From assembly GCF_024700885.2 (NCBI RefSeq), contig NZ_CP117016.1: DNA of 64,000 nt. One strand, written 5' to 3'. Positions within the stretch are counted from its first letter, which is position 1; the number at the start of each line of letters is the position of its first letter. The notes beneath the pieces were generated by a model, which was not told the DNA's origin, made no database searches, and saw nothing but the letters and a program-made list of their open reading frames with translations. Made by a program: the position numbers and the translations under genes. Source of the DNA: Escherichia coli (GTDB lineage Bacteria > Pseudomonadota > Gammaproteobacteria > Enterobacterales > Enterobacteriaceae). Of the stretch, positions 1 through 48,510 are shown piece after piece.

Positions 1-20
1 TCAGGTATGGTGCTGGCCTG

Positions 21-1685
<1,665 letters not shown>

Positions 1686-1772
1686 TTAATATGTCAAAAG
1701 ATTGGCTATCGACGAACAGGCGAGGTAACGCTATGTTAACGGTGTAGCTATCAGAATACGGAAGGCGCGAAG

Positions 1773-2516
1773 ATGAAAAACACCGAACTGGAACAACTGA
1801 TTAACGAAAAACTGAACAGCGCGGCGATTAGTGATTACGCGCCGAATGGTTTGCAGGTGGAAGGCAAAGAGACGGTGCAAAAAATTGTTACCGGTGTCAC
1901 TGCCAGCCAGGCTTTGCTCGATGAGGCAGTGCGTCTGGGCGCGGATGCGGTCATTGTGCATCATGGCTACTTCTGGAAAGGCGAATCTCCGGTCATTCGC
2001 GGCATGAAGCGTAACCGTTTAAAAACGTTGCTGGCAAATGATATCAACCTGTATGGCTGGCATTTGCCGCTTGACGCACATCCTGAGCTGGGCAATAACG
2101 CACAGCTGGCGGCGTTACTGGGGATCACGGTCATGGGCGAAATTGAGTCGTTGGTGCCGTGGGGCGAACTGACCATGCCTGTGCCGGGACTGGAACTAGC
2201 CTCTTGGATTGAAGCGCGTCTGGGACGTAAGCCGTTATGGTGTGGCGATACCGGACCTGAGGTGGTCCAGCGCGTTGCCTGGTGCACGGGCGGCGGGCAA
2301 AGTTTTATCGATAGCGCCGCGCGTTTTGGCGTGGATGCTTTTATTACTGGCGAAGTTTCTGAACAGACCATTCATTCAGCCCGCGAGCAGGGATTGCATT
2401 TTTATGCTGCGGGTCACCATGCCACTGAACGTGGTGGTATTCGCGCGTTGAGCGAGTGGCTGAATGAAAATACCGATCTTGATGTGACCTTTATTGATAT
2501 TCCTAATCCTGCATAA
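1773..2516 (+). CDS. ybgI: NIF3-family metal-binding protein YbgI, 247 aa
   Basis: ORF length and sequence consistent with E. coli YbgI; position upstream of pxpBCA. Confidence 0.92.
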   Translation: MKNTELEQLINEKLNSAAISDYAPNGLQVEGKETVQKIVTGVTASQALLDEAVRLGADAVIVHHGYFWKGESPVIRGMKRNRLKTLLANDINLYGWHLPLDAHPELGNNAQLAALLGITVMGEIESLVPWGELTMPVPGLELASWIEARLGRKPLWCGDTGPEVVQRVAWCTGGGQSFIDSAARFGVDAFITGEVSEQTIHSAREQGLHFYAAGHHATERGGIRALSEWLNENTDLDVTFIDIPNPA

Positions 2517-2538
2517 CGAATAATCAGAGGGATCGAAA

Positions 2539-3195
2539 GTGCAACGAGCGCGTTGTTATCTGATAGGTGAAACGGCGGTAGTGCTGGAGCTGGAACCGCC
2601 GGTGACGCTGGCTAGCCAGAAACGGATCTGGCGACTGGCGCAGCGTCTGGTGGATATGCCGAATGTGGTTGAAGCCATTCCCGGCATGAACAATATCACG
2701 GTGATTTTACGTAATCCTGAGTCGCTGGCGCTGGATGCCATAGAGCGTTTGCAACGCTGGTGGGAGGAGAGCGAGGCGCTGGAGCCGGAGTCTCGCTTTA
2801 TTGAAATTCCGGTGGTTTACGGTGGCGCAGGCGGACCGGATCTGGCGGTGGTCGCGGCGCATTGTGGGTTGAGCGAAAAACAGGTTGTTGAATTGCACTC
2901 CTCCGTGGAATACGTGGTCTGGTTTTTAGGTTTTCAACCGGGCTTCCCGTATCTCGGGAGTTTGCCGGAACAACTACACACGCCACGGCGCGCTGAACCG
3001 CGCTTGCTCGTTCCGGCAGGTTCTGTCGGGATCGGCGGGCCGCAGACCGGTGTTTATCCGCTGGCAACGCCGGGTGGCTGGCAGTTGATTGGTCATACCT
3101 CACTCAGCCTGTTTGATCCGGCGCGTGACGAACCCATCTTATTACGTCCGGGAGACAGCGTGCGCTTTGTACCGCAGAAGGAGGGAGTATGCTGA
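2539..3195 (+). CDS. pxpB: 5-oxoprolinase subunit B (YbgJ), 218 aa
   Basis: ORF in ybgJKL operon arrangement; length matches K-12 PxpB. Confidence 0.9.
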
Positions 3196-4121
3196 AGATT
3201 ATTCGTGCGGGCATGTATACCACTGTGCAGGATGGCGGTCGTCACGGTTTTCGCCAGTCGGGTATCAGCCACTGCGGCGCACTGGATATGCCTGCGTTAC
3301 GCATTGCTAACCTGCTGGTGGGTAATGACGCCAATGCCCCCGCGCTGGAGATAACGCTCGGTCAGTTAACGGTAGAGTTCGAAACTGATGGTTGGTTTGC
3401 CCTGACGGGGGCAGGTTGCGAAGCGCGGCTGGATGATAATGCCGTCTGGACTGGCTGGCGCTTGCCGATGAAAGCAGGCCAGCGTTTAACGCTTAAACGC
3501 CCACAGCACGGGATGCGCAGTTATCTGGCGGTCGCGGGTGGTATTGATGTTCCGCCGGTAATGGGGTCATGCAGTACCGATCTCAAAGTGGGGATTGGCG
3601 GGCTGGAAGGCCGTTTACTGAAGGATGGTGACCGACTCCCGATGGGTAAATCGAAGCGTGATTTTATGGAAGCGCAGGGCGTTAAACAGCTGCTGTGGGG
3701 CAACCGCATTCGCGCCTTGCCGGGGCCGGAATATCATGAGTTCGATCGCGCCTCGCAGGATGCATTCTGGCGTTCGCCGTGGCAGCTTAGTCCGCAAAGT
3801 AACCGCATGGGCTATCGCTTACAGGGGCAAATTTTAAAACGCACCACCGATCGCGAACTGTTATCTCACGGTTTGTTGCCGGGTGTGGTGCAAGTGCCGC
3901 ATAACGGCCAGCCGATTGTGTTGATGAACGATGCGCAAACCACCGGTGGTTATCCGCGTATTGCCTGTATCATTGAGGCTGATATGTACCATCTGGCGCA
4001 AATTCCGCTCGGTCAGCCGATTCATTTTGTCCAGTGTTCACTGGAAGAGGCACTGAAAGCGCGGCAAGATCAACAACGTTATTTCGAACAATTAGCGTGG
4101 CGGCTGCACAATGAAAATTGA
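3189..4121 (+). CDS. pxpC: 5-oxoprolinase subunit C (YbgK), 310 aa
   Basis: Overlaps pxpB stop by 7 nt (translational coupling); length matches K-12 PxpC. Confidence 0.9.
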
Positions 4122-4845
4122 CCTGAACGCCGATCTGGGCGAAGGCTGCGCCAGCGACGCAGAGCTATTAACGCTGGTTTCCTCTGCCAATATTGCCTGT
4201 GGATTTCATGCAGGCGATGCGCAAATCATGCAGGCTTGCGTGCGTGAAGCAATAAAAAATGGTGTCGCGATTGGCGCTCACCCGAGTTTTCCCGACCGGG
4301 AAAATTTTGGTCGCAGTGCCATGCAGCTGCCGCCAGAAACCGTTTACGCCCAGACGCTGTATCAAATTGGCGCGCTGGCAGCGATTACCCGTGCGCAAGG
4401 GGGCGTAATGCGTCATGTCAAACCGCACGGCATGTTATACAACCAGGCGGCGAAAGAGGCACAACTGGCAGACGCCATCGCCAGAGCGGTATACGCTTGC
4501 GATCCGTCATTGATTCTCGTCGGGCTGGCGGGAAGCGAGCTGATTCGTGCAGGCAAGCGATATGGTCTGATAACGCGCGAGGAAGTGTTTGCCGATCGCG
4601 GTTATCAGGCTGACGGCTCGCTGGTGCCGCGAAGCCAGCCAGGCGCGTTGATTGAAAACGAAGAACAGGCGCTGGCGCAAACGTTGGAGATGGTGCAACA
4701 CGGCAGAGTCAAAAGTATCACCGGCGAATGGGCAACGGTCACGGCGCAAACGGTCTGCCTGCATGGCGATGGCGAGCACGCACTGGCATTCGCCCGCCGA
4801 CTACGCTCTACATTTGCCGAAAAGGGGATTGTTGTCGCAGCATAA
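4111..4845 (+). CDS. pxpA: 5-oxoprolinase subunit A (YbgL, LamB/YcsF family), 244 aa
   Basis: LamB/YcsF-like sequence; operon position after pxpC. Confidence 0.9.
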
Positions 4846-4880
4846 TCCCGCTTAATAAAGAATGAAAAAAGGATATCACC

Positions 4881-5672
4881 ATGCCTGAAGGCCCGGAGAT
4901 CCGCCGTGCAGCGGATAACCTGGAGGCGGCGATCAAAGGCAAACCACTAACTGATGTCTGGTTTGCCTTCCCGCAGTTAAAACCTTATCAATCACAACTT
5001 ATCGGTCAACACGTTAGCCATGTGGAAACGCGAGGTAAGGCGTTGTTAACTCATTTTTCCAACGGTTTAACGCTCTACAGCCATAATCAGCTTTACGGCG
5101 TCTGGCGCGTGGTTGAAACCGGCGAAGAGCCGCAGACCACGCGAGTATTGCGGGTAAAACTGCAAACGGCTGACAAAACCATTCTGCTTTATAGCGCCTC
5201 GGATATTGAGATGTTGACCCCGGAACAACTGACCACGCATCCGTTTTTACAACGCGTTGGCCCCGATGTGCTGGATCCGAATCTGACGCCGGAGGTGGTA
5301 AAGGAACGATTATTGTCGCCGCGCTTTCGTAACCGTCAGTTTGCTGGATTACTGCTCGATCAGGCGTTTCTGGCAGGACTTGGCAATTATTTGCGGGTGG
5401 AGATCCTCTGGCAGGTGGGGTTAACCGGCAATCATAAAGCGAAAGATCTCAGTGCGGCGCAACTGGATGCACTCGCACACGCGTTACTGGATATTCCTCG
5501 ACTTTCTTACGCTACGCGGGGGCAGGTGGATGAGAATAAACATCATGGGGCGTTGTTTCGCTTTAAGGTTTTTCATCGTGATGGCGAACCGTGTGAACGC
5601 TGTGGCAGCATCATTGAGAAAACCACGTTGTCCTCGCGCCCGTTTTACTGGTGTCCAGGCTGCCAACACTAG
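4881..5672 (+). CDS. nei: Endonuclease VIII (Fpg/Nei family DNA glycosylase), 263 aa
   Basis: N-terminal MPEGPEI motif typical of Fpg/Nei family; C-terminal zinc finger CxxC...CxxC; conserved position. Confidence 0.95.
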
Positions 5673-6715
5673 GCCGACCGCTTCGGCGCATAGGTTGAAA
5701 TAAACCGCGCAATGGCTGGCCCCGTCAGCAAAATACTGAACAGGCGCAGGGTTTGCATCGCCATAATAAGCGCCATATCGGCATTGCTCCCTGCGGCGAT
5801 GACCGCCACGGTATCAAGCCCGCCGGGGCTGGTGGCGAGGTAGGCAGTCATAAAATCAATATGCATAAACCGGGTCAGTCCCCACGCCATACCTGCACAA
5901 ATAGCCAGCAGAGCAAAAATCGACAGCAAGATTTGTGGCAGCGGGCGCAATGCCCGCAGTAAGATTTGCTTATCGAAACCAAGACCAATCCGCCAGCCAA
6001 TTGCCATATACGCCATCGCCAGCAGCCATTCCGGGAGTTCAATCGTGATGAGCTGACCAGACTGGAGCACTGCGCCCGCCAGCATCGGGATGAGCATCGT
6101 GCCGGAAGGAAGACGTAGCAAACATCCCGCCGTACCGGCAACGACCGCGAGCAAAATCGTAAGCAGGAGATTAATGCTCACTGGCGGGAACCAGACGATC
6201 TGCTGGTTAACCGCTTCAGCGTTATCGCCCAGCATCATGCGGGTGACCAGAACAGCGGCCCCCGCGACGAACAGCACTCGCAGATATTGCATAAACGCCA
6301 CCAGGCGAATATCTGCGCCGTAATCTTGCGCCATAGCGACCATTGCCGCCGCGCCGCCAGGAGAAGAACCCCAGGCACCGGTATTTCCAGGCAGTGAGCT
6401 ATAGCGCACCAGTAGCCACCCAACAATGGCGCTGGAAAGCAGCGTCACCAGTAAAATTGTAAGCACGATCGGCCAGTTGACGGCCAGCGTGGTGAGAATC
6501 GAACCAGTGAGGTTTTGCGCAATCATGCAGCCAAGAATGGCCTGGGCGGCGAGAAAAGCAGAGCGGGGAAGTTGCAGAGTAATTCCGCGCATACTAAAGA
6601 TGATCCCGGCGATCATCGGTCCAAGTAATAGCGCCGCCGGGAGATGTAATCCGAGGAAGCCAATAGAAAGGAGAAGTGAGAGCACACATAACATTCCCCA
6701 CTGCAAAACTGGCAT
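5669..6715 (-). CDS. abrB: AbrB-family membrane protein (putative regulator/transporter), 348 aa
   Basis: Hydrophobic multi-pass ORF; start placed at [10 protein letters not shown] (ORF-track start 26 codons further upstream is probably not used) to match the K-12 length. Confidence 0.85.
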
Positions 6716-6867
6716 CCTTCGCTCCCTCATTATTTTTTCTTTGGTGTATCGATACAGCATAAAGAAAGCCGGGCCAGGAAAAAATAACAGCAATCAAGGA
6801 AAAGGGGAAAATCAGCAATTTTCTGAAAGAGAGGCCCTTTACTGACTGCAAAGGGCATCATGATAAA

Positions 6868-7929
6868 TTAGTTATAGTTAATCTTAAAAAGCACCACTGT
6901 ATCGAAGGGACCCGCTTCGATGGGGGTGCCGGGAATGGACGAAAGTTCAGCCGTATAGGTTTTTTCGTAGATCAGCATATCGCTGGTGAAATCAGCATAT
7001 TCGCTGTATTTGTTGAAAGTATAGGGTGAAGAATTTTCATCCAGCAAACGTAGCTTCAGTCCATTACCAATCAGCAGTGCTTTATCCTCTTCAATCAATG
7101 TTTCTTCGGTATAAAACGAAGAGCTGACCTTAAATCCGTCGGTGCACTGGTCATTTTGTGATTTTGTCGTCTTAATACTGAATGTTTTCGACATTGTGTG
7201 GCGGCGAATATCCAGCAGGTTAAATTTACCAAAATCAATCACCTGTGTTTCTGGTGAAATAGAAAAATTGACGCTGCAATCCAGTACACGAATGTTTTCC
7301 AGACCAGTAATATGGTATTTCAGGTTTTGGGCGGTAGGGTCTTCGTTAACGCTACCGGCACCATCAAATTGCACGACGATGTAGTCGCTAAGCGTACTTT
7401 GATAATCATGCGGCGGTATTTCGCGAATCTTAACGTATAACCGCATACGAGCAAGAAAGGTTCGCGACATGTGAATATTAGCGGGGTCACCCGAGCATAT
7501 TTTGTTCTGCCAGCCCATCGCGATAATCTGCTCAGGGGTATAAATGTTAATGTTCTTACTGTCGATACACTGGTTGGTGTCGATGCGGCTTTTCCCCTGG
7601 TTGGCGTCATAATCAACGCCATTGTAAGTTACGCCGAGTTGATAATAGCGATCCTGCACCCCCGGGTAGGGGTTTACCCAGGCGTAGACATGCTCACTTT
7701 CAAAGTTGCCGTTGGTATTGTTGTCACAATAGACGGGAATTTTAATATCGTCAGATTCCCAAATCTTATCGCCGGGTTTGGCATTGCCTGGTACAGCAAA
7801 AGGTTGAATCACTTCTGATTTTTCTACCGAACCACCGGATGAACCAAAGTAGCAGTTCAGGGCAAGCGCAGACTTCAACGGCAGAAATACCAGACAGATG
7901 ACGAGCAACACTCCCTTGCCAGCACTCAT
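6868..7929 (-). CDS. ybgO: Putative fimbrial adhesin/minor subunit YbgO, about 353 aa
   Basis: Last gene of chaperone-usher operon; signal-peptide-like N-terminus; start placed at MSAGKG, a 4-nt overlap with the ybgP stop. Confidence 0.85.
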
Positions 7930-8657
7930 TTCTTCGCCTCCACTGCTTGTAAACGGCATTGTCCGCTGCAGTTGAGCGTCGTCATGCGTAACGCGCCGTA
8001 ATCATCCATATAACCGAGATAAAACTGCCTGCCGCTATAACTTCCGGTGTTTGTAATTACTGTACTAAAAGGCGCAACCATCACGGTTTTGAAGCCCGGG
8101 AGAATACCTTGCTCATTTCGTCCCAGGTAGGCGATTGTCAGGTAATAGCCGGTCGGGTTTTTTAAGTTAAGTTGATTGCCCTGCTGGCTGACTTGTAACT
8201 GTAGCTCGACTTTTTCTCCTGCTTTCTTGCGTAACGCGGACGGTCTCCAGAACACCTTGATACGACTCTGGATAGCGACTTGCAGAACGGCATGGTCGCT
8301 ATTTTTTTCCGGGGCGGGAGGAATTTCACGCATATTGTAGAAAAATAGCGTTTCGCGATCGCCCGGTAATTTTGTGGTCGAGGCTTGCTTTACTATCCGT
8401 ACCTGCGTTGTTGCTTTCGGTTCCAGACGTTGTATCGGTGGCAGGGCAACCAGAAGATCATCGCTTTTCTCCCCTTTTTCATTTTCGAGCCAGGAATAAG
8501 CGAGGTAGGGGAGTTTATCGCTACGATTATCCACTCGCAGGCTGGTGGCTTTATCATTAGCGTTAAACACAATGCGAGTGCGATCGGGTTGTAGCGCAGC
8601 GTAGCTGCACAGACTGGCAATCAACAACAAAAGGGGAAGTCCTTTCATAAATGTCAT
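7926..8657 (-). CDS. ybgP: Periplasmic fimbrial chaperone YbgP (PapD-like), 243 aa
   Basis: Size and signal peptide typical of PapD-family chaperones; sits between usher and adhesin genes. Confidence 0.88.
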
Positions 8658-8672
8658 TTTTCATTTCCTTAA

Positions 8673-11132
8673 TTAATGACAAGGTAAAATCAGGCGATTT
8701 GCGGTGTCTTCCATATGTTCAGGAAGATGGATCGAGCAACGCTGGCTATCACCCCAGACCACGGTAAATTGTTGATTTTCAGCGACTCCACTTAACCAGG
8801 CGTGTCCTTCCTCGCCAACCATCCCCACGCTAATGCCGCTATCCTCCTGGCGGATATCCGCACCGAGGGGAGGGAACTGACCGCTGGCGTTGCGAATGAT
8901 GACGTTAACGTCTTTACCGGAACGGGAAGCCAGCGATTTGTAACCTATCGCGCCTTCAATCCACGTTTCTTTGATAACGTTTTCTGCCACTGTTACGCCG
9001 TCGGGTAAATCATTCATGTTCACCGCCACGGTGGAAGGCTGATAACTGGAAATCAACGGCACCACCGCAATGCCAAAATGGTTGGTGTAGTCGAGATTGC
9101 CCTGAACCGGAATATCTGCCACGCCATCAGTACTGACCATCAGACGTGGTTCATTGGTGGAGCTGCGACGATGGAACGCCGCACCATATTGAGTTGCCGT
9201 GAAAGAACCGCTCCAGCTGCTGCTGACGGAACTGTAATCATTGGCGGCATAGGTACCAGAAATATCCCACTCACCCGCTGAACTCAGGTGCTGATAGTTA
9301 CCGCTCACCTGGGCTCCATTATCCGGACGGTCGGATTGCAGTCCGGTAGACATGCCCCAGCTATTACGTTCATCTAACGTATCATTCCACGACATGCGGT
9401 GCGTGGTGCTGTGACTACTGTTTTGCATGTCATAACCGACCCGCCCCCCGTTACCGAAGGGGAGCGAAATCGACAGGTAAATCTGATTGTCGCGATCTTT
9501 ATCTTCGTAATGGGTTGTATTGAATGACGTCGAGATCGAGATATCTCTCCAGTTACCAATATCAACATTAAAACCCGCCGTGATGTTGGCGGTCGTGGAG
9601 GCGTCTGCATTCCACCAGGTTTGATGCAGCAGGTTGGCGTACAGATTGAGGTTCAGTGGGGTAATCGGTTGCCCCACGGATAAGCTGATCGTCTGTTTTT
9701 CGTCCTGCGCATCGTTGTCGTTGTATTTGTGATCCAGATAGTTGGCGTAGCTGTGAAAATGACGATCTGAGAAGCGATAAGCGGCGAGCGAAATCGTGCT
9801 GTTAGTGGCATCCACTTGTTTGCTGTAATTAAAGCGGTAACTTAAGCCCCGCTCGTCCTGCTGAGTATCAAACTGACTACTGGCCCAGGTGACATCAAAC
9901 GACAATGCACCAAGCCAGAGCATATTTTGCCCGATACCCATTGCGGCAGAATGGTAGTCGTCACCCGAAATCAGCAGGCCGCCGTACAGTGAGGTATTTG
10001 ACAGCATCCCCCAGGAAACTTCATTGCTAAAAAAGGTTTCATTTTCAGTTTGATGAGACATAGATGTTCGCGGCTGACCGGCAGCAAGTTTATAGCGAAC
10101 CTGCCCCTGGCGCGTAAGGAAAGGCGTCGATGCTGCCGAAACCTGGAAATTGTTCACCCGACCATCTTCTTCCGTCACTTTGACATCCAACGTACCCTGG
10201 ACGGACTGATTAAGGTCATCAATGATAAACGGACCTGGTGGGACTTTTTTCTGGTAAATAACTCGCCCTGAGTGACTCACGGTGACGGTGGCGTTGGTTT
10301 GTGCAATGCCGCTGATTTGTGGGGCGTAGCCGCGTAGCTCCCACGGTAACATCCGATCGTCACTTGCCAGTGCCGCGCCGGTATAAGAAAAGCCGTCGAA
10401 AATATTGGAACTGAAATCCGTTTCACCAAGGGTTAATTTTGAACCTAATTGCGGTAATGGACGAAAAAGATAGGTGCGTGATATTTCGCCTGACTGTTCA
10501 TGGTTATCATCGCTATCGGTCTGATTCAATTGGTAATCACTGCGTAAACGCCATGCTCCCGCGTTAATTCCGGCTGTTCCATAGGCGTTCAGGTTAGTGC
10601 TGTTGCTACCATCCTGTGGGCGGTAGCTGCTGGCAAACAGGTTGTAGTCCATCAGGACGCCGGCGACACCTTCTTTCCATGTTGAGGGGGGAGTCCAGTT
10701 ATCTGAGTGCCACGCCAGCCAGGCTTGTGGAATAGTGATATTCAGTTGCTGGCTAGCCTGATCAAAAATGAAGAGAATTTCAGGCCGGGAGCTAAAATCG
10801 ACGCACTGGTTTAACCGTGGTAACGACTGACGAACTTCAGGTTTTAAACCAAATTTATCTACCAGTAAATCATTAATACACGGAATGGTTTGGTCACCGT
10901 TCTTTTTCCAGTCAATTTTTTGTCCGTTACTGATTTGGTTGTTATTCACCGCAACGCTAACAAAATATTCACCGGGAGCAATGCCCCCTTTTTCCTTTAA
11001 TAATGAAATATCAATGCGATCTCGCATCGATTTATCGAGGACATTCAGGTTGAATTCGACCGCCAATGCGGAAGGTATCGCCATGACCAGGCAGGATATA
11101 AAAGAGAGTCGATAAATATTCACGGTGTCCAT
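8673..11132 (-). CDS. ybgQ: Outer-membrane fimbrial usher YbgQ, about 819 aa
   Basis: Usher-sized ORF ending with the LILPCH-type C-terminus; start placed at MDTVNIYRLS (ORF track extends 14 codons upstream); exact start uncertain. Confidence 0.85.
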   Translation of the reverse strand: MDTVNIYRLSFISCLVMAIPSALAVEFNLNVLDKSMRDRIDISLLKEKGGIAPGEYFVSVAVNNNQISNGQKIDWKKNGDQTIPCINDLLVDKFGLKPEVRQSLPRLNQCVDFSSRPEILFIFDQASQQLNITIPQAWLAWHSDNWTPPSTWKEGVAGVLMDYNLFASSYRPQDGSNSTNLNAYGTAGINAGAWRLRSDYQLNQTDSDDNHEQSGEISRTYLFRPLPQLGSKLTLGETDFSSNIFDGFSYTGAALASDDRMLPWELRGYAPQISGIAQTNATVTVSHSGRVIYQKKVPPGPFIIDDLNQSVQGTLDVKVTEEDGRVNNFQVSAASTPFLTRQGQVRYKLAAGQPRTSMSHQTENETFFSNEVSWGMLSNTSLYGGLLISGDDYHSAAMGIGQNMLWLGALSFDVTWASSQFDTQQDERGLSYRFNYSKQVDATNSTISLAAYRFSDRHFHSYANYLDHKYNDNDAQDEKQTISLSVGQPITPLNLNLYANLLHQTWWNADASTTANITAGFNVDIGNWRDISISTSFNTTHYEDKDRDNQIYLSISLPFGNGGRVGYDMQNSSHSTTHRMSWNDTLDERNSWGMSTGLQSDRPDNGAQVSGNYQHLSSAGEWDISGTYAANDYSSVSSSWSGSFTATQYGAAFHRRSSTNEPRLMVSTDGVADIPVQGNLDYTNHFGIAVVPLISSYQPSTVAVNMNDLPDGVTVAENVIKETWIEGAIGYKSLASRSGKDVNVIIRNASGQFPPLGADIRQEDSGISVGMVGEEGHAWLSGVAENQQFTVVWGDSQRCSIHLPEHMEDTANRLILPCH

Positions 11133-11182
11133 ACCTGATAAATATTTGAAGAAAGGCGGCGATGACGCCGCCAAAGTGATAC

Positions 11183-11749
11183 TTATTTATAATCCAGTAC
11201 GTAGGTCGCATTCGCCGTAACTGCGCCTGGTGTTACGGGCGTAGCCTGATCAATTTGTTCCATCCACGCAAAGAAATTTAACGTTTGTTCGCTGGAGGTT
11301 GGTGCCAGGTCGATATCTGGAGTAGCGGTGCCTAAAACGATATTGCTTTGATCTTTATTCATTAAACGCACGCCGACACCGGTCGCTTCACCCGTGCTGG
11401 TGTTGTTGAGAATCGGATCTGCGCCGGTGGTTTTCGCTGAGCTTTCAAAGGTGACTGCAACTTTAGAAATCTTGCCGCCGGAACCGTTGTTGGAGTTTTC
11501 CAGATCGCAGTTGACTAAGCGCAGGTCGACAGCAACGGCATCGCTGTGATGCGACTGATTAATATGGCTGGTGGTCACCTGACCGAGTTCAACCTCTTTA
11601 TCAATATCATCCTGATGTATTTCACACGGTGCTTCAATAACTTCACCTTTAAAGTGAATTTCACCGGATCCTTCATCAGCCGCATAAACAGGTGCTGTGA
11701 ATAGCAGAGATATGGCCAGTGCGGCCAATGTTTTTTGTCCTTTAAACAT
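11183..11749 (-). CDS. ybgD: Fimbrial major subunit YbgD, 188 aa
   Basis: Fimbrial subunit-like ORF with signal peptide MFKGQKTLAALAISLLFTAPVYA; first gene of the operon. Confidence 0.88.
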   Translation of the reverse strand: MFKGQKTLAALAISLLFTAPVYAADEGSGEIHFKGEVIEAPCEIHQDDIDKEVELGQVTTSHINQSHHSDAVAVDLRLVNCDLENSNNGSGGKISKVAVTFESSAKTTGADPILNNTSTGEATGVGVRLMNKDQSNIVLGTATPDIDLAPTSSEQTLNFFAWMEQIDQATPVTPGAVTANATYVLDYK

Positions 11750-12074
11750 AGCTGAGTCCTTTAAATAATGAGATAGAGTGTTGCGAGGCAAGAATATATT
11801 AACTGACAGTTGAATGTATTTGGTTTTATTTAACAATATTAAAAATCTTGTTATATAAAGAATGGAATAATTGAGTGTATAAATTTATTGTTTAATGAGA
11901 TGAAAGATGGGGTGGGATGGATATGCATAATTTTCATTGGGTTAACAATGCTACCGGCAGGAAAGTATAAAAATAAACTTATCATTCTGCTCAGTATGTG
12001 ACTTGTCACATTTTTTCACCTTATTAATGGGTATTTGCATCTGGTTTAATTTTTACAATTTATTATGTTCAGCC

Positions 12075-12110
12075 ATATAAAAAAGAACCCGCTCTATTAA
12101 AGGCGGGTCC
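12075..12110 (-). terminator. Rho-independent terminator downstream of gltA
   Basis: On the minus strand a GC stem (CCCGC...GCGGG) is followed by a T-run (TTCTTTTTTAT) immediately after the gltA stop. Confidence 0.7.
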
Positions 12111-12138
12111 GGAAAGTAAACGGCTTAGCAATCAACCA

Positions 12139-13422
12139 TTAACGCTTGATATCGCTTTTAAAGTCGCGTTTTTCATATCCTGTATACAGTTGACGCGGAC
12201 GGGCAATCTTCATACCGTCACTGTGCATTTCGCTCCAGTGGGCGATCCAGCCAACGGTACGTGCCATAGCGAAGATCACGGTGAACATAGAAGACGGAAT
12301 ACCCATCGCTTTCAGGATGATACCAGAGTAGAAATCGACGTTCGGGTAGAGTTTCTTCTCGATAAAGTACGGGTCGTTCAGCGCGATGTTTTCCAGCTCC
12401 ATAGCCACTTCCAGCAGGTCATCTTTGGTACCCAGCTCTTTCAGCACTTCATGGCAGGTTTCACGCATTACGGTGGCGCGCGGGTCGTAATTTTTGTACA
12501 CGCGGTGCCCGAAGCCCATCAGGCGGAAAGAGTCATTTTTGTCTTTCGCACGACGAACAAATTCCGGAATGTGTTTAACGGAGCTGATTTCTTCCAGCAT
12601 TTTCAGCGCCGCTTCGTTAGCACCACCGTGCGCAGGTCCCCACAGTGAAGCAATACCTGCTGCGATACAGGCAAACGGGTTCGCACCCGAAGAGCCAGCG
12701 GTACGCACGGTGGAGGTAGAGGCGTTCTGTTCATGGTCAGCGTGCAGGATCAGAATACGGTCCATAGCACGTTCCAGAATCGGATTAACTTCATACGGTT
12801 CGCACGGCGTGGAGAACATCATATTCAGGAAGTTACCGGCGTAGGAGAGATCGTTGCGCGGGTAAACAAATGGCTGACCAATGGAATACTTGTAACACAT
12901 CGCGGCCATGGTCGGCATTTTCGACAGCAGGCGGAACGCGGCAATTTCACGGTGACGAGGATTGTTAACATCCAGCGAGTCGTGATAGAACGCTGCCAGC
13001 GCGCCGGTAATACCACACATGACTGCCATTGGATGCGAGTCGCGACGGAAAGCATGGAACAGACGGGTAATCTGCTCGTGGATCATGGTATGACGGGTCA
13101 CCGTAGTTTTAAATTCGTCATACTGTTCCTGAGTCGGTTTTTCACCATTCAGCAGGATGTAACAAACTTCCAGGTAGTTAGAATCGGTCGCCAGCTGATC
13201 GATCGGGAAACCGCGGTGCAGCAAAATACCTTCATCACCATCAATAAAAGTAATTTTAGATTCGCAGGATGCGGTTGAAGTGAAGCCAGGGTCAAAGGTG
13301 AACACACCTTTTGAACCGAGAGTACGGATATCAATAACATCTTGACCCAGCGTGCCTTTCAGCACATCCAGTTCAACAGCTGTGTCCCCGTTGAGGGTGA
13401 GTTTTGCTTTTGTATCAGCCAT
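12139..13422 (-). CDS. gltA: Citrate synthase, 427 aa
   Basis: Sequence [35 protein letters not shown] matches E. coli GltA; divergent from sdhCDAB. Confidence 0.97.
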
Positions 13423-14130
13423 TTAAGGTCTCCTTAGCGCCTTATTGCGTAAGACTGCCGGAACTTAAATTTGCCTTCGCACATCAACCTGGCTTTACCC
13501 GTTTGTTATTTGGCTCGCCGCTCTGTGAAAGAGGGGAAAACCTGGGTACAGAGCTCTGGGCGCTTGCAGGTAAAGGATCCATTGATGACGAATAAATGGC
13601 GAATCAAGTACTTAGCAATCCGAATTATTAAACTTGTCTACCACTAATAACTGTCCCGAATGAATTGGTCAATACTTCCACACTGTTACATAAGTTAATC
13701 TTAGGTGAAATACCGACTTCATAACTTTTACGCATTATATGCTTTTCCTGGTAATGTTTGTAACAACTTTGTTGAATGATTGTCAAATTAGATGATTAAA
13801 AATTAAATAAATGTTGTTATCGTGACCTGGATCACTGTTCAGGATAAAACCCGACAAACTATATGTAGGTTAATTGTAATGATTTTGTGAACGGCCTATA
13901 CTGCCGCCAGGTCTCCGGAACACCCTGCAATCCCGAGCCACCCAGCGTTGTAACGTGTCGTTTTCGCATCTGGAAGCAGTGTTTTGCATGACGCGCAGTT
14001 ATAGAAAGGACGCTGTCTGACCCGCAAGCAGACCGGAGGAAGGAAATCCCGACGTCTCCAGGTAACAGAAAGTTAACCTCTGTGCCCGTAGTCCCCAGGG
14101 AATAATAAGAACAGCATGTGGGCGTTATTC
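13423..14130. promoter_or_regulatory. gltA-sdhC divergent promoter/regulatory intergenic region
   Basis: About 700-bp AT-rich intergenic region between divergent gltA and sdhC; individual promoter and ArcA/CRP sites not mapped by eye. Confidence 0.6.
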
Positions 14131-14520
14131 ATGATAAGAAATGTGAAAAAACAAAGACCTGTTAATCTGGACCTACAGACCATCCGGTTCCCCATCACGG
14201 CGATAGCGTCCATTCTCCATCGCGTTTCCGGTGTGATCACCTTTGTTGCAGTGGGCATCCTGCTGTGGCTTCTGGGTACCAGCCTCTCTTCCCCTGAAGG
14301 TTTCGAGCAAGCTTCTGCGATTATGGGCAGCTTCTTCGTCAAATTTATCATGTGGGGCATCCTTACCGCTCTGGCGTATCACGTCGTCGTAGGTATTCGC
14401 CACATGATGATGGATTTTGGCTATCTGGAAGAAACATTCGAAGCGGGTAAACGCTCCGCCAAAATCTCCTTTGTTATTACTGTCGTGCTTTCACTTCTCG
14501 CAGGAGTCCTCGTATGGTAA
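14131..14520 (+). CDS. sdhC: Succinate dehydrogenase cytochrome b556 subunit, 129 aa
   Basis: Start placed at [16 protein letters not shown] to match K-12 SdhC; membrane-anchor hydrophobic profile. Confidence 0.93.
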
Positions 14521-14861
14521 GCAACGCCTCCGCATTAGGACGCAATGGCGTACATGATTTCATCCTCGTTCGCGCTACCGCTATCGTCCTGACGCTCTAC
14601 ATCATTTATATGGTCGGTTTTTTCGCTACCAGTGGCGAGCTGACATATGAAGTCTGGATCGGTTTCTTCGCCTCTGCGTTCACCAAAGTGTTCACCCTGC
14701 TGGCGCTGTTTTCTATCTTGATTCATGCCTGGATCGGCATGTGGCAGGTGTTGACCGACTACGTTAAACCGCTGGCCTTGCGCCTGATGCTGCAACTGGT
14801 GATTGTCGTTGCACTGGTGGTTTACGTGATTTATGGATTCGTTGTGGTGTGGGGTGTGTGA
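14514..14861 (+). CDS. sdhD: Succinate dehydrogenase hydrophobic membrane anchor, 115 aa
   Basis: Overlaps sdhC stop; length matches SdhD. Confidence 0.95.
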
Positions 14862-16627
14862 TGAAATTGCCAGTCAGAGAATTTGATGCAGTTGTGATTG
14901 GTGCCGGTGGCGCAGGTATGCGCGCGGCGCTGCAAATTTCCCAGAGCGGTCAGACCTGTGCGCTGCTCTCTAAAGTCTTCCCGACCCGTTCCCATACCGT
15001 TTCTGCGCAAGGCGGCATTACCGTTGCGCTGGGTAATACCCATGAAGATAACTGGGAATGGCATATGTACGATACCGTAAAAGGGTCGGACTATATCGGT
15101 GACCAGGACGCGATTGAATATATGTGTAAAACCGGGCCGGAAGCGATTCTGGAACTCGAACACATGGGCCTGCCGTTCTCGCGTCTTGATGATGGTCGTA
15201 TCTATCAACGTCCGTTTGGCGGTCAGTCGAAAAACTTCGGCGGCGAGCAGGCGGCACGCACTGCGGCGGCTGCTGACCGTACCGGTCACGCACTGTTGCA
15301 CACCCTTTATCAGCAGAACCTGAAAAACCATACAACCATTTTCTCCGAGTGGTATGCGCTGGATCTGGTGAAGAACCAGGATGGCGCAGTGGTCGGTTGT
15401 ACCGCATTGTGCATCGAAACTGGTGAAGTGGTTTATTTCAAAGCCCGCGCTACCGTGCTGGCGACTGGCGGGGCAGGGCGTATTTATCAGTCCACTACCA
15501 ACGCCCACATTAACACTGGCGACGGCGTCGGCATGGCTATCCGTGCAGGCGTACCAGTGCAGGATATGGAAATGTGGCAGTTCCACCCGACTGGTATTGC
15601 CGGTGCGGGCGTCCTGGTCACCGAAGGGTGCCGTGGTGAAGGCGGTTATCTGCTGAACAAACATGGCGAACGCTTTATGGAGCGTTATGCGCCGAACGCC
15701 AAAGACCTGGCGGGCCGTGACGTGGTGGCGCGTTCCATCATGATCGAAATCCGTGAAGGTCGCGGCTGTGATGGTCCGTGGGGGCCACACGCAAAACTGA
15801 AACTTGACCACCTGGGTAAAGAAGTTCTCGAATCCCGTCTGCCGGGTATTCTGGAACTCTCCCGTACCTTCGCTCACGTTGATCCGGTGAAAGAGCCGAT
15901 TCCGGTTATCCCAACCTGTCACTACATGATGGGCGGTATTCCGACCAAAGTGACCGGTCAGGCGCTGACGGTGAACGAGAAAGGCGAAGATGTGGTGGTT
16001 CCGGGGCTGTTTGCCGTTGGTGAAATCGCTTGTGTATCGGTACACGGCGCTAACCGTCTGGGCGGCAACTCGCTGCTGGACCTGGTGGTCTTTGGTCGTG
16101 CGGCAGGTCTGCATCTGCAAGAGTCTATCGCCGAGCAGGGCGCACTGCGCGATGCCAGCGAGTCTGATGTTGAAGCGTCTCTGGATCGTCTGAACCGCTG
16201 GAACAACAACCGTAACGGTGAAGATCCGGTGGCGATCCGTAAAGCGCTGCAAGAATGTATGCAGCATAACTTCTCGGTCTTCCGTGAAGGTGATGCGATG
16301 GCGAAAGGGCTTGAGCAGTTGAAAGTGATCCGCGAGCGTCTGAAAAATGCCCGTCTGGATGACACTTCCTGCGAGTTCAACACCCAGCGCGTTGAGTGCC
16401 TGGAACTGGATAACCTGATGGAAACGGCGTATGCAACGGCTGTTTCTGCCAACTTCCGTACCGAAAGCCGTGGCGCGCATAGCCGCTTCGACTTCCCGGA
16501 TCGTGATGATGAAAACTGGCTGTGCCACTCCCTGTATCTGCCAGAGTCGGAATCCATGACGCGCCGAAGCGTCAACATGGAACCGAAACTGCGCCCGGCA
16601 TTCCCGCCGAAGATTCGTACTTACTAA
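14861..16627 (+). CDS. sdhA: Succinate dehydrogenase flavoprotein subunit, 588 aa
   Basis: ATG at 14861 overlaps the sdhD stop (TGATG); [27 protein letters not shown]-binding N-terminus. Confidence 0.96.
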
Positions 16628-16642
16628 TGCGGAGACAGGAAA

Positions 16643-17359
16643 ATGAGACTCGAGTTTTCAATTTATCGCTATAACCCGGATGTTGATGATGCTCCGCGTA
16701 TGCAGGATTACACCCTGGAAGCGGAAGAAGGTCGTGACATGATGCTGCTGGATGCGCTTATCCAGCTGAAAGAGAAAGATCCCAGCCTGTCGTTCCGCCG
16801 CTCCTGCCGTGAAGGTGTGTGCGGTTCCGACGGTCTGAACATGAACGGCAAGAATGGTCTGGCCTGTATTACCCCGATTTCGGCACTCAACCAGCCAGGC
16901 AAGAAGATTGTGATTCGCCCGCTGCCAGGTTTACCGGTGATCCGCGATTTGGTGGTAGACATGGGACAATTCTATGCGCAATATGAGAAAATTAAGCCTT
17001 ACCTGTTGAATAATGGACAAAATCCGCCAGCTCGCGAGCATTTACAGATGCCAGAGCAGCGCGAAAAACTCGACGGGTTGTATGAATGTATTCTCTGCGC
17101 ATGTTGTTCAACCTCTTGTCCGTCTTTCTGGTGGAATCCCGATAAGTTTATCGGCCCGGCAGGCTTGTTAGCGGCATATCGTTTCCTGATCGATAGCCGT
17201 GATACCGAGACTGACAGTCGCCTCGACGGTTTGAGCGATGCATTCAGTGTATTCCGCTGTCACAGCATCATGAACTGCGTCAGTGTATGTCCGAAGGGGC
17301 TGAACCCGACGCGCGCCATCGGCCATATCAAGTCGATGTTGTTGCAACGTAATGCGTAA
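16643..17359 (+). CDS. sdhB: Succinate dehydrogenase iron-sulfur subunit, 238 aa
   Basis: Cys clusters for Fe-S centres; operon position. Confidence 0.96.
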   Translation: MRLEFSIYRYNPDVDDAPRMQDYTLEAEEGRDMMLLDALIQLKEKDPSLSFRRSCREGVCGSDGLNMNGKNGLACITPISALNQPGKKIVIRPLPGLPVIRDLVVDMGQFYAQYEKIKPYLLNNGQNPPAREHLQMPEQREKLDGLYECILCACCSTSCPSFWWNPDKFIGPAGLLAAYRFLIDSRDTETDSRLDGLSDAFSVFRCHSIMNCVSVCPKGLNPTRAIGHIKSMLLQRNA

Positions 17360-17559
17360 TTAAATGTTGATGCCGGGGAAATCCCCCGGCTATTCAGGAA
17401 ATCTTTAAAAACTGCCCCTGACACTAAGACAGTTTTTAAAGGTTCCTTCGCGAGCCACTACGTAGACAAGAGCTCGCAAGTGAACCCCGGCACGCACATC
17501 ACTGTGCGTGGTAGTATCCACGGCGAAGTAAGCATAAAAAAGATGCTTAAGGGATCACG

Positions 17560-21593: not shown

Positions 21594-21686
21594 TAGTTTA
21601 AGTTTCACCTGCACTGTAGACCGACGTGGATATGGTGTCGGTCTACGGTTTAAAAGATAACGATTACTGAAGGATGGACAGAACAC

Positions 21687-22853
21687 ATGAACTTACATGA
21701 ATATCAGGCAAAACAACTTTTTGCCCGCTATGGCTTACCAGCACCGGTGGGTTATGCCTGTACTACTCCGCGCGAAGCAGAAGAAGCCGCTTCAAAAATC
21801 GGTGCCGGTCCGTGGGTAGTGAAATGTCAGGTTCACGCTGGTGGCCGCGGTAAAGCGGGCGGTGTGAAAGTTGTAAACAGCAAAGAAGACATCCGTGCTT
21901 TTGCAGAAAACTGGCTGGGCAAGCGTCTGGTAACGTATCAAACAGATGCCAATGGCCAACCGGTTAACCAGATTCTGGTTGAAGCAGCGACCGATATCGC
22001 TAAAGAGCTGTATCTCGGTGCCGTTGTTGACCGTAGTTCCCGTCGTGTGGTCTTTATGGCCTCCACCGAAGGCGGCGTGGAAATCGAAAAAGTGGCGGAA
22101 GAAACTCCGCACCTGATCCACAAAGTTGCGCTTGATCCGCTGACTGGCCCGATGCCGTATCAGGGACGCGAGCTGGCGTTCAAACTGGGTCTGGAAGGTA
22201 AACTGGTTCAGCAGTTCACCAAAATCTTCATGGGCCTGGCGACCATTTTCCTGGAGCGCGACCTGGCGCTGATCGAAATCAACCCGCTGGTCATCACCAA
22301 ACAGGGCGATCTGATTTGCCTCGACGGCAAACTGGGCGCTGATGGCAACGCACTGTTCCGCCAGCCTGATCTGCGCGAAATGCGTGACCAGTCGCAGGAA
22401 GATCCACGTGAAGCACAGGCTGCACAGTGGGAACTGAACTACGTTGCGCTGGACGGTAACATCGGTTGTATGGTTAACGGCGCAGGTCTGGCGATGGGTA
22501 CGATGGACATCGTTAAACTGCACGGCGGCGAACCAGCTAACTTCCTTGACGTTGGCGGCGGCGCAACCAAAGAACGTGTAACCGAAGCGTTCAAAATCAT
22601 CCTCTCTGACGACAAAGTGAAAGCCGTTCTGGTTAACATCTTCGGCGGTATCGTTCGTTGCGACCTGATCGCTGACGGTATCATCGGCGCGGTAGCGGAA
22701 GTGGGTGTTAACGTACCGGTCGTGGTACGTCTGGAAGGTAACAACGCCGAACTCGGCGCGAAGAAACTGGCTGACAGCGGCCTGAATATTATTGCAGCAA
22801 AAGGTCTGACGGATGCAGCTCAGCAGGTTGTTGCCGCAGTGGAGGGGAAATAA
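21687..22853 (+). CDS. sucC: Succinyl-CoA synthetase beta subunit, 388 aa
   Basis: [21 protein letters not shown]-grasp N-terminus. Confidence 0.97.
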
Positions 22854-23722
22854 TGTCCATTTTAATTGATAAAAACACCAAGGTTATCTGCCAGGGCTTT
22901 ACCGGTAGCCAGGGGACTTTCCACTCTGAACAAGCCATTGCATACGGCACTAAAATGGTTGGCGGTGTAACCCCAGGTAAAGGCGGCACCACCCACCTCG
23001 GCCTGCCGGTGTTCAACACCGTGCGTGAAGCTGTTGCTGCTACTGGCGCTACCGCTTCTGTTATCTACGTACCAGCACCGTTCTGCAAAGACTCCATTCT
23101 GGAAGCTATCGATGCAGGCATCAAACTGATTATCACCATCACTGAAGGCATCCCGACGCTGGATATGCTGACCGTGAAGGTGAAACTGGATGAAGCGGGC
23201 GTTCGCATGATCGGCCCGAACTGCCCAGGCGTTATCACTCCGGGTGAATGCAAAATCGGTATCCAGCCTGGTCACATTCACAAACCGGGTAAAGTGGGTA
23301 TCGTTTCCCGTTCCGGTACACTGACCTATGAAGCGGTGAAACAGACCACGGATTACGGTTTCGGTCAGTCGACCTGTGTTGGTATCGGCGGCGACCCGAT
23401 CCCTGGCTCTAACTTTATCGACATCCTCGAAATGTTCGAAAAAGATCCGCAGACCGAAGCGATCGTGATGATCGGTGAGATCGGCGGTAGCGCTGAAGAA
23501 GAAGCGGCTGCGTACATCAAAGAGCACGTTACCAAGCCTGTTGTGGGTTACATCGCTGGTGTGACTGCGCCGAAAGGCAAACGTATGGGCCACGCGGGTG
23601 CCATCATTGCTGGTGGGAAAGGGACTGCGGATGAGAAATTCGCTGCTCTGGAAGCCGCAGGCGTGAAAACCGTTCGCAGCCTGGCGGATATCGGTGAAGC
23701 ACTGAAAACTGTTCTGAAATAA
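22853..23722 (+). CDS. sucD: Succinyl-CoA synthetase alpha subunit, 289 aa
   Basis: Start overlaps sucC stop (ATAATG); CoA-binding [24 protein letters not shown]. Confidence 0.97.
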
Positions 23723-23822
23723 ATATCTGTAATAAGAAATAGCCCTCGCCGCTTCCCTCTACAGGAATGGCGAAGGGTTGTCGGTTTCGACATGGTTGGC
23801 CATCGTATGATGGCCTTTTTTA
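23723..23822 (+). ncRNA. sdhX: Probable SdhX (RybD) 3'-UTR-derived sRNA of the sdh-suc transcript
   Basis: About 100 nt between the sucD stop and a strong intrinsic terminator; in E. coli this 3' UTR is known to give rise to SdhX; exact 5' end not determinable from sequence. Confidence 0.5.
23798..23822 (+). terminator. Rho-independent terminator of the sdh-suc operon
   Basis: Hairpin GGCCATCGTATGATGGCC followed by TTTTTT. Confidence 0.85.
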
Positions 23823-24387
23823 TGCCTTAAATGTTAACCACGGTCGAAATCTGACCGCTGGCTTGACTGCATGACCACAGCCACTGTGGATTGCCGCAAC
23901 CGACCGCAAGCCACGAATAAGAACGACGGCGAATTTCGAATCGTTACCTGATGCACTGGCTTCCCAGCGTTTGACCGTAGCGTTAAGTAAATCAACAAAA
24001 GCGATGTTCACCGCTTATCGTCAAGTCGTGCCATTTGTCAGCCAGGATCGGGTCTTTACCCCGGATATTGCAGCATCGCAAAAATTCTTAGAGGGATATG
24101 CTATAAATCAAAAATAAAATCTTTGTTGATTGTTTATCATAATATCCACAGATATGATAAATGATATCAATTTAATAATTTTCACTTAATGTGATTCCGG
24201 ATAATTCGAAAGGCGCTGTGCTTTTCGGATTATTATTATCTGATTAAGATATTTGTCACGCCAGGCTTACTGGGTTATAAATGTCAATCATGATTCTTAT
24301 AAATTATTTATTGCTGCTTTGGTTACCATTACTTCGTAATAAGTAATGTATTTTTGATGGTTTAAACTATTTTTAAGGGACGGCATT

Positions 24388-25293
24388 ATGCGAGGAAAAA
24401 TACCTAAAACGGAGCTGCTGGTGACTTTTGAGGTCGTCGCACGTCATGAAAGTTATACCAGAGCGGCAGAGGAGTTAGCGTTAACCCAAAGTGCAGTATT
24501 CAGACAAGTGAGTGCGCTGGAGGAATTTTTACATACTCCGTTATTTTCACACTCTAAAAAACGTATTTTTCTTAATGATGCAGGGAAGTATTACCTGGGG
24601 ATAGTAAAAGAAACATTAAATAAGCTGGAACGCGATACCAATACCATTATGACCTGGCAGCCTACGGTTCAGGTTATTGAACTTGCCGTGAATCCTACGT
24701 TTAGTACCCACTGGTTAATCCCAAATTTACATGAATTCACAAAGTTACATCCCGATATTATTGTTAATATTCATTCTTTAGCTAATAACGGCGATTTTCT
24801 TAATCGGGAGTACGATGCTGTCATTATGCGCGAAAATTTTTGCGCGCCCTGGGCGGAAGTAGAATATCTCTTTGAAGAGGAGATTTTGCCGGTATGCAGC
24901 GGCAGTTTGCTTGCAATGTCCGATCAAAAACTGTCAGTGGCAGAACTGCTTACAGAGTTACCACTTCTGCATCAAAGTACCCGTATTACTGGCTGGGAAG
25001 AGTGGTTTGCCTTATCTGGCGTTAGCAGTCCGCTGGTCAACAACGGACCACGTTTCGATTTGCTTTCAATGCTGATTGCCGCCGTGCGCTCGAATCTCGG
25101 CGTGGCGCTGTTACCTCGTTTCGCTATTCAACATGATTTGGATAGTGGCGATATGGTGATCCCCTGTGATGTGCCTATTCGTACCGGTAATCGTTTTATT
25201 ATGACGTGGCAGGAAGAGAAGTCTGACTCACCGCACTTGCAGCAATTTCGTGAATGGTTGCTGGCGAAATCGGTCGTACCGCAGGAGATGTAA
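24388..25293 (+). CDS. LysR-family transcriptional regulator, 301 aa
   Basis: N-terminal HTH (ELALTQSAVFRQVSALEEFL) and LysR substrate-binding-like C-terminal domain; convergent with the distal end of the methylaspartate operon. Confidence 0.85.
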   Translation: MRGKIPKTELLVTFEVVARHESYTRAAEELALTQSAVFRQVSALEEFLHTPLFSHSKKRIFLNDAGKYYLGIVKETLNKLERDTNTIMTWQPTVQVIELAVNPTFSTHWLIPNLHEFTKLHPDIIVNIHSLANNGDFLNREYDAVIMRENFCAPWAEVEYLFEEEILPVCSGSLLAMSDQKLSVAELLTELPLLHQSTRITGWEEWFALSGVSSPLVNNGPRFDLLSMLIAAVRSNLGVALLPRFAIQHDLDSGDMVIPCDVPIRTGNRFIMTWQEEKSDSPHLQQFREWLLAKSVVPQEM

Positions 25294-33749: not shown

Positions 33750-33757
33750 ACTTTACG
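33750..33757. repeat. Target-site duplication (left copy) ACTTTACG
   Basis: 8-bp direct repeat immediately flanking the IS26 left inverted repeat. Confidence 0.85.
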
Positions 33758-34577
33758 GGCACTGTTGCAAATAGTCGGTGGTGATAAACTTATCATCCCC
33801 TTTTGCTGATGGAGCTGCACATGAACCCATTCAAAGGCCGGCATTTTCAGCGTGACATCATTCTGTGGGCCGTACGCTGGTACTGCAAATACGGCATCAG
33901 TTACCGTGAGCTGCAGGAGATGCTGGCTGAACGCGGAGTGAATGTCGATCACTCCACGATTTACCGCTGGGTTCAGCGTTATGCGCCTGAAATGGAAAAA
34001 CGGCTGCGCTGGTACTGGCGTAACCCTTCCGATCTTTGCCCGTGGCACATGGATGAAACCTACGTGAAGGTCAATGGCCGCTGGGCGTATCTGTACCGGG
34101 CCGTCGACAGCCGGGGCCGCACTGTCGATTTTTATCTCTCCTCCCGTCGTAACAGCAAAGCTGCATACCGGTTTCTGGGTAAAATCCTCAACAACGTGAA
34201 GAAGTGGCAGATCCCGCGATTCATCAACACGGATAAAGCGCCCGCCTATGGTCGCGCGCTTGCTCTGCTCAAACGCGAAGGCCGGTGCCCGTCTGACGTT
34301 GAACACCGACAGATTAAGTACCGGAACAACGTGATTGAATGCGATCATGGCAAACTGAAACGGATAATCGGCGCCACGCTGGGATTTAAATCCATGAAGA
34401 CGGCTTACGCCACCATCAAAGGTATTGAGGTGATGCGTGCACTACGCAAAGGCCAGGCCTCAGCATTTTATTATGGTGATCCCCTGGGCGAAATGCGCCT
34501 GGTAAGCAGAGTTTTTGAAATGTAAGGCCTTTGAATAAGACAAAAGGCTGCCTCATCGCTAACTTTGCAACAGTGCC
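33758..34577 (+). mobile_element. IS26 (IS6 family), complete 820-bp copy
   Basis: 14-bp terminal inverted repeats GGCACTGTTGCAAA (33758-33771) and TTTGCAACAGTGCC (34564-34577); internal transposase matches IS26 Tnp as I recall; flanked by 8-bp direct repeats. Confidence 0.93.
33821..34525 (+). CDS. tnpA: IS26 transposase Tnp26 (DDE), 234 aa
   Basis: MNPFKGRHFQRDIILWAVRWYCKYGISYRELQEMLAERGVNVDHSTIYRWVQRYAPEMEK is the canonical IS26 transposase N-terminus (from memory); start placed at the ATG 18 nt inside the ORF-track start. Confidence 0.93.
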   Translation: MNPFKGRHFQRDIILWAVRWYCKYGISYRELQEMLAERGVNVDHSTIYRWVQRYAPEMEKRLRWYWRNPSDLCPWHMDETYVKVNGRWAYLYRAVDSRGRTVDFYLSSRRNSKAAYRFLGKILNNVKKWQIPRFINTDKAPAYGRALALLKREGRCPSDVEHRQIKYRNNVIECDHGKLKRIIGATLGFKSMKTAYATIKGIEVMRALRKGQASAFYYGDPLGEMRLVSRVFEM

Positions 34578-34585
34578 ACTTTACG
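34578..34585. repeat. Target-site duplication (right copy) ACTTTACG
   Basis: 8-bp direct repeat immediately flanking the IS26 right inverted repeat. Confidence 0.85.
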
Positions 34586-46583: not shown

Positions 46584-47129
<546 letters not shown>

Positions 47130-47138
47130 GAGAATTGC

Positions 47139-48094: not shown

Positions 48095-48170
48095 GGGTCG
48101 TTAGCTCAGTTGGTAGAGCAGTTGACTTTTAATCAATTGGTCGCAGGTTCGAATCCTGCACGACCCACCA
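48095..48170 (+). tRNA. lysT: tRNA-Lys (anticodon UUU)
   Basis: 76-nt GGGTCGTTAGCTCAGTTGGTAGAGCAGTTGACTTTTAATCAATTGGTCGCAGGTTCGAATCCTGCACGACCCACCA; anticodon loop CTTTTAA; encoded CCA. Confidence 0.97.
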
Positions 48171-48198
48171 ATCGCTAAGGTGGACGCGGTAGTAAAAC

Positions 48199-48270
48199 GT
48201 GAAGGATAACGTTGCGTCAGCAACGGCCCGAAGGGCGAGACGAAGTCGAGTCATCCTGCACGACCCACCA
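48199..48270 (+). repeat. Spacer repeat ending in a duplicated tRNA-Lys 3' end (copy 1)
   Basis: GTGAAGGATAACGTTGCGTCAGCAACGGCCCG...TCATCCTGCACGACCCACCA recurs at 48694-48763; the last 20 nt equal the tRNA-Lys acceptor/T-arm end. Confidence 0.8.
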
Positions 48271-48305
48271 CTAACCTAGTTAGTTGTAGTATCCAGCGTA
48301 GTATC

Positions 48306-48381: not shown

Positions 48382-48383
48382 CC

Positions 48384-48459: not shown

Positions 48460-48510
48460 CTAATTACGGTGGGTTCGGTGGAAGTAGTTTGTAGTATCCA
48501 GCGCAGTATC

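Follow-up and report, generated by a model that had tools for sequence, protein, structure and literature searches.

SdhX, also named RybD, is an RNase E-processed, Hfq-dependent small RNA (sRNA) that derives from the 3′-terminal part of the sdhCDAB-sucABCD transcript and represses ackA (PMC6393394; PMC9438474). Neither a start site for its transcription nor a conserved promoter was reported, it is lost in an RNase E temperature-sensitive strain, and its terminal 38 nt alone constitute a fully functional regulator (PMC6393394). The seed, which includes the core CGACAU and lies just 5′ of the terminator, was determined experimentally by Miyakoshi et al. (PMC6393394). In the numbering used for the E. 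coli sRNA, which starts from the end of the sucD coding sequence, G62 pairs with C-13 of fdoG and marks the processing site of the 38-nt short form, and C34 takes part in a near-perfect pairing of 14 bp with the katG Shine-Dalgarno region, a feature specific to Escherichia and Shigella (PMC6393394). The Salmonella enterica forms, SdhX1 (87 nt) and SdhX2 (38 nt), come from the same operon 3′ end, include the same CGACAU core followed by the terminator and U-tail, and share with the E. coli sRNA the primary target ackA and the biogenesis by RNase E. However, the Salmonella sRNA lacks the katG-pairing region, has a U in place of G62, and represses fumB and yfbV but not katG or fdoG (PMC6393394). 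A similar organization, in which the operon terminator serves as the Hfq module, the seed is located just upstream, and RNase E releases the RNA, was described for CpxQ, NarS, SroC and MalH (PMC9438474). These four sRNAs differ from SdhX in their parental operons, seeds and targets, and they have no sequence relation to it.

The window analysed here, a 64,000-nucleotide stretch of an Escherichia coli genome, includes the complete sdhCDAB-sucABCD operon. Each of its eight genes (sdhC, sdhD, sdhA, sdhB, sucA, sucB, sucC and sucD) has its full length, and their order is that of K-12. The last one, sucD, ends with a TAA codon (23720..23722), is collinear with its K-12 counterpart, and has the same locus name in the annotation of identical E. 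coli records. The original prediction described a 100-nt 3′ UTR with a GC hairpin and a U-run behind sucD, at 23723..23822, and proposed it as the location of SdhX. In K-12 MG1655 (NC_000913), the ncRNA sdhX (b4764, 'small regulatory RNA SdhX') occupies nucleotides 765050..765150, i.e., 101 nt beginning at the first base past the sucD stop codon. The K-12-equivalent segment is found at the same place in the window, within one base of the interval that had been proposed; the portion that reaches the last T of the six-T run is 99 nt long. The coordinates of all relevant features are listed in Table 1.

Table 1. Features of the sdhX locus and its surroundings, with their coordinates in the window.
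Feature	Coordinates	Strand	Basis or remarks
sucD coding sequence (succinyl-CoA synthetase alpha)	22853..23722	+	289-aa ORF; last gene of sdhCDAB-sucABCD
sdhX (SdhX/RybD sRNA), long form of ~101 nt	23723..23823	+	aligns with K-12 b4764, no gaps
5′ stem-loop of the long form (nt 20-56)	23742..23778	+	predicted MFE and centroid structures
katG-pairing region GCUUCCCUCUACAG (nt 29-42), E. coli-specific	23751..23764	+	14-bp duplex with the katG Shine-Dalgarno region
C56U polymorphism	23778	+	one position within the transcribed body of the sRNA that differs from K-12; there is no other
G62, fdoG-pairing base and SdhX2 processing site	23784	+	unchanged with respect to K-12
Expected short form, SdhX2-equivalent, 38 nt	23784..23821	+	seed and terminator; inferred from PMC6393394
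Seed UUCGACAUGGU, core CGACAU (23788..23793)	23786..23796	+	defined in PMC6393394; identical to K-12
Rho-independent terminator hairpin	23798..23815	+	GGCCATC-GTAT-GATGGCC; 7 bp, 5 G-C pairs, 4-nt loop
U-tail, six T's	23816..23821	+	expected 3′ Hfq-binding element, role per PMC6393394
Decayed rtcB-family remnant	23820..24108	-	tblastn; query, intact RtcB from strain 806883-9-2019
Left junction	23826 ± 3 nt		K-12 homology ends
LysR regulator gene	24388..25293	co-oriented with sdhX	Pfam HTH_1 and LysR_substrate

An alignment with K-12 sdhX and an inspection of the seed had been suggested together with the prediction. When they were carried out, 99 of the 101 positions were the same, no gaps were introduced, and the seed was identical. 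The two mismatches are a T for C at 23778 (nt 56) and an A for G at 23822, just past the U-run, and neither of them touches the seed, the katG-pairing region, G62 or the terminator. C34, which corresponds to position 23756 inside the katG-pairing region, is also unchanged with respect to K-12. Thus, in comparison with the K-12 SdhX, the window sRNA has the same location behind sucD, the same length, and identical seed, katG region, G62, terminator stem and U-tail, and it differs in having U56 and the A at 23822. In the two features that set the Salmonella sRNA apart, the katG-pairing region and G62, the window carries the E. coli version. We consider it almost certain that the segment is the sdhX gene, coding for a processed, Hfq-dependent sRNA that originates in the sucD 3′ UTR and represses ackA; the regulation of ackA by the processed sRNA, named in the original prediction, agrees with the literature (PMC6393394; PMC9438474). 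SdhX in this window is an already known, experimentally characterized sRNA and not a meaningful new member or variant.

Among 5426 complete E. coli genomes, 5416 carried the sdhX 101-mer, nearly always without annotation, and the other ten had no match. A search of the whole window with Rfam 15 at the gathering thresholds produced no match over the sdhX segment, and a permissive search (E ≤ 10) of the 23500..24400 region did not identify an SdhX family. The permissive matches over the terminator were at chance level and belonged to unrelated models (isrD, 17.3 bits; tmRNA, 7.2 bits). Since no hit was obtained even though the query shares 99% identity with K-12 sdhX, Rfam 15 evidently does not include an SdhX model, which also explains why PGAP leaves the gene unlabelled in most E. 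coli records. The practical use of these results is to label the segment as sdhX and to record that the junction with a variable cassette is flush with its terminator. Beyond correct annotation their importance is small; the gene in question is a link between the TCA-cycle operon and acetate kinase.

The 3′ end of the sRNA is formed by the terminator hairpin, which has a stem identical to that in K-12 and a free energy of -11.5 kcal/mol by itself, followed by the U-tail. Both components of the putative Hfq-binding 3′ module are present. A scan of 2 kb for the terminator consensus detected three matches where 1.9 were expected, and the match by itself is not significant. The fold of the 103-nt 3′ UTR, on the other hand, has a predicted energy of -39.9 kcal/mol versus -25.2 ± 3.2 kcal/mol for dinucleotide shuffles (z = -4.68), and none of the 200 shuffles was as good. 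The seed, immediately 5′ of the terminator, is the same in the window as in every intact allele that was examined. In five other sdhX alleles, the remaining variation affects either the 5′ stem-loop or the loop of the terminator and leaves both the seed and the terminator stem untouched. A natural disruption of sdhX is found in E. coli FDAARGOS_944 (NZ_CP065613.1, L006 1573..2330), where an IS1 lies within the gene directly behind the seed (...GACATGG) and separates it from the terminator.

By analogy with the published work, the sRNA would be expected to be transcribed, processed by RNase E, bound by Hfq and able to repress its targets in the strain that carries the window. SdhX would be transcribed, without a promoter of its own, as the tail of the sdhCDAB-sucABCD mRNA, transcription would end at the intrinsic terminator (23798..23821), and RNase E cleavage would release forms of ~101 and ~38 nt. 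The lone RNase E-type motif (RN↓WUU) in the UTR is GG↓UUU, nt 61-65, and it coincides with the published short-form processing site, which is a hint at the level of the motif. The terminal 38 nt are the same as in K-12. The seed is predicted to be unpaired 58% on average in the long form versus 93% in the 38-mer, and its core to be partly sequestered in the long form by a small hairpin comprising nt 57-70. A different origin for the sRNA, independent transcription from a promoter inside sucD, could find some basis in a weak promoter-like match on the + strand within that gene (23277..23304, 9/12). We regard this origin as extremely unlikely: the match is about 450 nt upstream of the sRNA, the promoter-like sites are not enriched over those in shuffled sequences (4 versus 3.2 ± 2.0), with none above chance upstream, and neither the published lack of a start site or conserved promoter nor the loss of SdhX in the RNase E temperature-sensitive strain (PMC6393394) would be expected from it. 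The lack of enrichment is consistent with SdhX being made by processing.

All three published pairings were recovered when the interactions with the K-12 targets were predicted as local duplexes. Pairing the full-length sRNA with target windows of 100 nt yielded duplexes of unrealistic length, and local segments accompanied by shuffle controls were used instead. The seed is complementary to the start codon and second codon of ackA (CCAUGUCGAG, -2..+8), with which it is predicted to form 10 bp at -16.7 kcal/mol, a value equalled or improved by 17 of 1000 shuffled segments. Nucleotides 29-42 would form 14 bp with the katG site (CUGUAGAGGGGAGC) at -28.2 kcal/mol, and none of 1000 shuffles was as good. 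The predicted duplex with fdoG, which places C-13 opposite G62, has an energy of -15.9 kcal/mol that is indistinguishable from that of the shuffles, 171 of 1000 being as good. Since the ackA and fdoG energies are weakly or not separable from those of the controls, the support for the pairings comes from their identity to the experimentally validated ones. The window includes both features of the E. coli clade, the 14-nt katG-pairing region and G62.

The window itself does not contain ackA, katG or fdoG, and the state of the target sites in its own genome was inferred from their conservation across the species. Windows of 40 nt around the sites are identical in 5422 (ackA), 5425 (katG) and 5406 (fdoG) of 5426 E. 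coli genomes. The 40-nt queries were centred on the sites in such a way that a mismatch in the pairing site leaves no 28-nt megablast word. Because the three sites are near-invariant across these genomes, the source genome almost certainly has them intact. The seed would then pair across the ackA start codon and repress the synthesis of acetate kinase, which would tie the metabolism of acetate and acetyl phosphate to expression of the TCA-cycle operon. G62 together with the seed would, in E. coli, also pair with fdoG, and nt 29-42 would pair with the katG ribosome-binding site.

The T at 23778 was found in 44 of 5426 genomes (0.8%) using a 31-nt query centred on the position, and C56U is considered a rare, lineage-specific allele because of this frequency. 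The substitution is predicted to convert the G20-C56 pair, which involves the closing base of the 5′ stem-loop, into G20·U56. The predicted ensemble free energy changes from -42.2 to -40.2 kcal/mol, the seed opening cost from 2.66 to 2.97 kcal/mol, and the opening cost of the katG region remains constant at 6.31 kcal/mol. The rarity of the allele, the loss of ~2 kcal/mol in ensemble stability, and the fact that the flanking DNA departs from K-12 from ~23826 on could be taken as signs that the segment is a mere operon 3′ UTR with its terminator, in which C56U or the changed downstream context blocks the accumulation of a functional sRNA. This is very improbable. The substitution retains a base pair, falls in none of the functional elements (seed, katG region, processing site, terminator), and shifts the seed opening cost by just 0.3 kcal/mol. 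It is also outside the 38-nt portion that is sufficient for ackA repression (PMC6393394) and that is identical to K-12 here. Furthermore, sdhX is intact in about 835 genomes, O157 among them, that have this cassette downstream of it. The folding results predict that C56U is neutral, and the reading of the segment as a gene for a functional SdhX is retained.

The original prediction also stated that an island begins shortly after the terminator and that the sRNA and the terminator were retained on the core side of the junction. The second statement was confirmed, both elements being upstream of the point where K-12 identity ends. The first one held with respect to the position and needed refinement with respect to the nature of the island and to its distance from the sRNA. 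BLAST comparisons showed that the segment 23830..38622 (14.8 kb) stands in for 5.9 kb of K-12 DNA, made up of the mngR-mngA-mngB genes and a portion of the intergenic region next to them, and that K-12 homology returns upstream of cydA. As judged from these alignments, the difference between the two genomes is a cassette-for-cassette replacement and not a simple insertion.

In the window, the first ~290 bp behind the sdhX terminator are a decayed remnant of an rtcB-family gene on the minus strand. Its last 15 amino acids are identical at 13 of 15 positions to those of the intact RtcB of strain 806883-9-2019, encoded at the equivalent position (L005 1598..2995), and a segment upstream is 32% identical and contains stops and frameshifts. 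The gene has also lost 175 bp through an internal deletion. A Pfam search with the 63-aa ORF of the remnant found no domain match. The SdhX U-tail shares its last two T's with the stop codon of the remnant (23822..23820), and for this reason the junction is described as flush with the 3′ end of the sRNA and not merely near it. The variable DNA likewise abuts the sRNA in K-12, where the downstream neighbour is the convergent mngR, with its stop codon 2 nt past sdhX, instead of the rtcB remnant and the cassette that follows it. Right past the 3′ end of the sRNA the DNA departs from K-12, and at this very place sdhX, including its E. coli-specific pairing regions, was kept intact. The list of reading frames mechanically includes a 35-aa ORF (23767..23874, + strand) that has its start within the 5′ stem-loop and continues past the terminator. 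The idea that the locus codes for this small protein is next to impossible, since the ORF spans the terminator and the junction at ~23826, its C-terminal half lies in DNA that is wholly different in K-12-type strains, and its ATG is sequestered by the 5′ stem, with the sole purine-rich stretch abutting it and leaving no spacer.

Downstream of the remnant, 565 nt from sdhX, begins the LysR regulator gene of the cassette, whose methylaspartate genes belong to glutamate catabolism. In near-identical records, the genes of the cassette include cobO and those coding for a class I fumarate hydratase, a dicarboxylate symporter, methylaspartate ammonia-lyase and methylaspartate mutase. The arrangement is common to ~835 genomes, including O157. 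Across the E. coli strains compared (the window, L001, L003, L004 and L005), at least three gene sets were observed behind the same sdhX terminator: mngR-mngA-mngB in K-12 and SaT040, an intact rtcB-family gene in 806883-9-2019, and the rtcB remnant with the LysR/methylaspartate cassette in the window and O157. The sdhX-cydA interval looks like a recombination hotspot. The geometry of the genes, taken by itself, would also accommodate a reading in which what matters is the neighbourhood and not the sRNA, either through read-through of the SdhX terminator that couples transcription of the TCA operon to the cassette or through altered SdhX levels due to the lost convergent transcription or to C56U. 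We find this unlikely to a high degree.

The cassette gene glmL, which codes for the methylaspartate mutase accessory protein, is interrupted by an 820-bp insertion sequence (33758..34577). Because of this interruption, the methylaspartate pathway may be inactive in the strain of the window. The element has 14-bp perfect terminal inverted repeats (GGCACTGTTGCAAA), is flanked by an 8-bp target-site duplication (ACTTTACG, 33750..33757 and 34578..34585), and codes for a 240-aa transposase of the DDE_Tnp_IS240 type (E = 2.5e-48). These features fit IS26, of the IS6 family. Strain elppa4, which is identical to the window over 801 bp at the sdhX locus and 99.98-100% identical otherwise, does not have the 820-bp element.

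Two intergenic regions inside the SdhX-producing operon are longer in K-12 than in the window. These are the sdhB-sucA region, by ~100 bp (17359..17392 in the window; L007 17406..17539), and the sucB-sucC region, by ~180 bp (21623..21638 in the window; L007 21770..21966). The extra K-12 DNA may consist of REP/BIME-type elements. Identity to K-12 is 94.4% over positions 1..17359 of the window, which include the ybgO-ybgD fimbrial region and gltA, ~98.3-98.7% for the segments that align between sucA and the tRNA cluster, and 97.6% past that cluster. The lower value in the first portion suggests, at the level of sequence comparison, that a segment upstream of the sdh operon is divergent or has recombined. 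Rfam matches elsewhere in the window include a CpoB/ybgF ICR thermometer (142 bits), seven tRNAs and two RtT RNAs (47030..47168; 48095..48993). The tRNA cluster aligns with the K-12 lysT-valT-lysW-valZ-lysY-lysZ-lysQ array, and all these are ordinary core-genome features.
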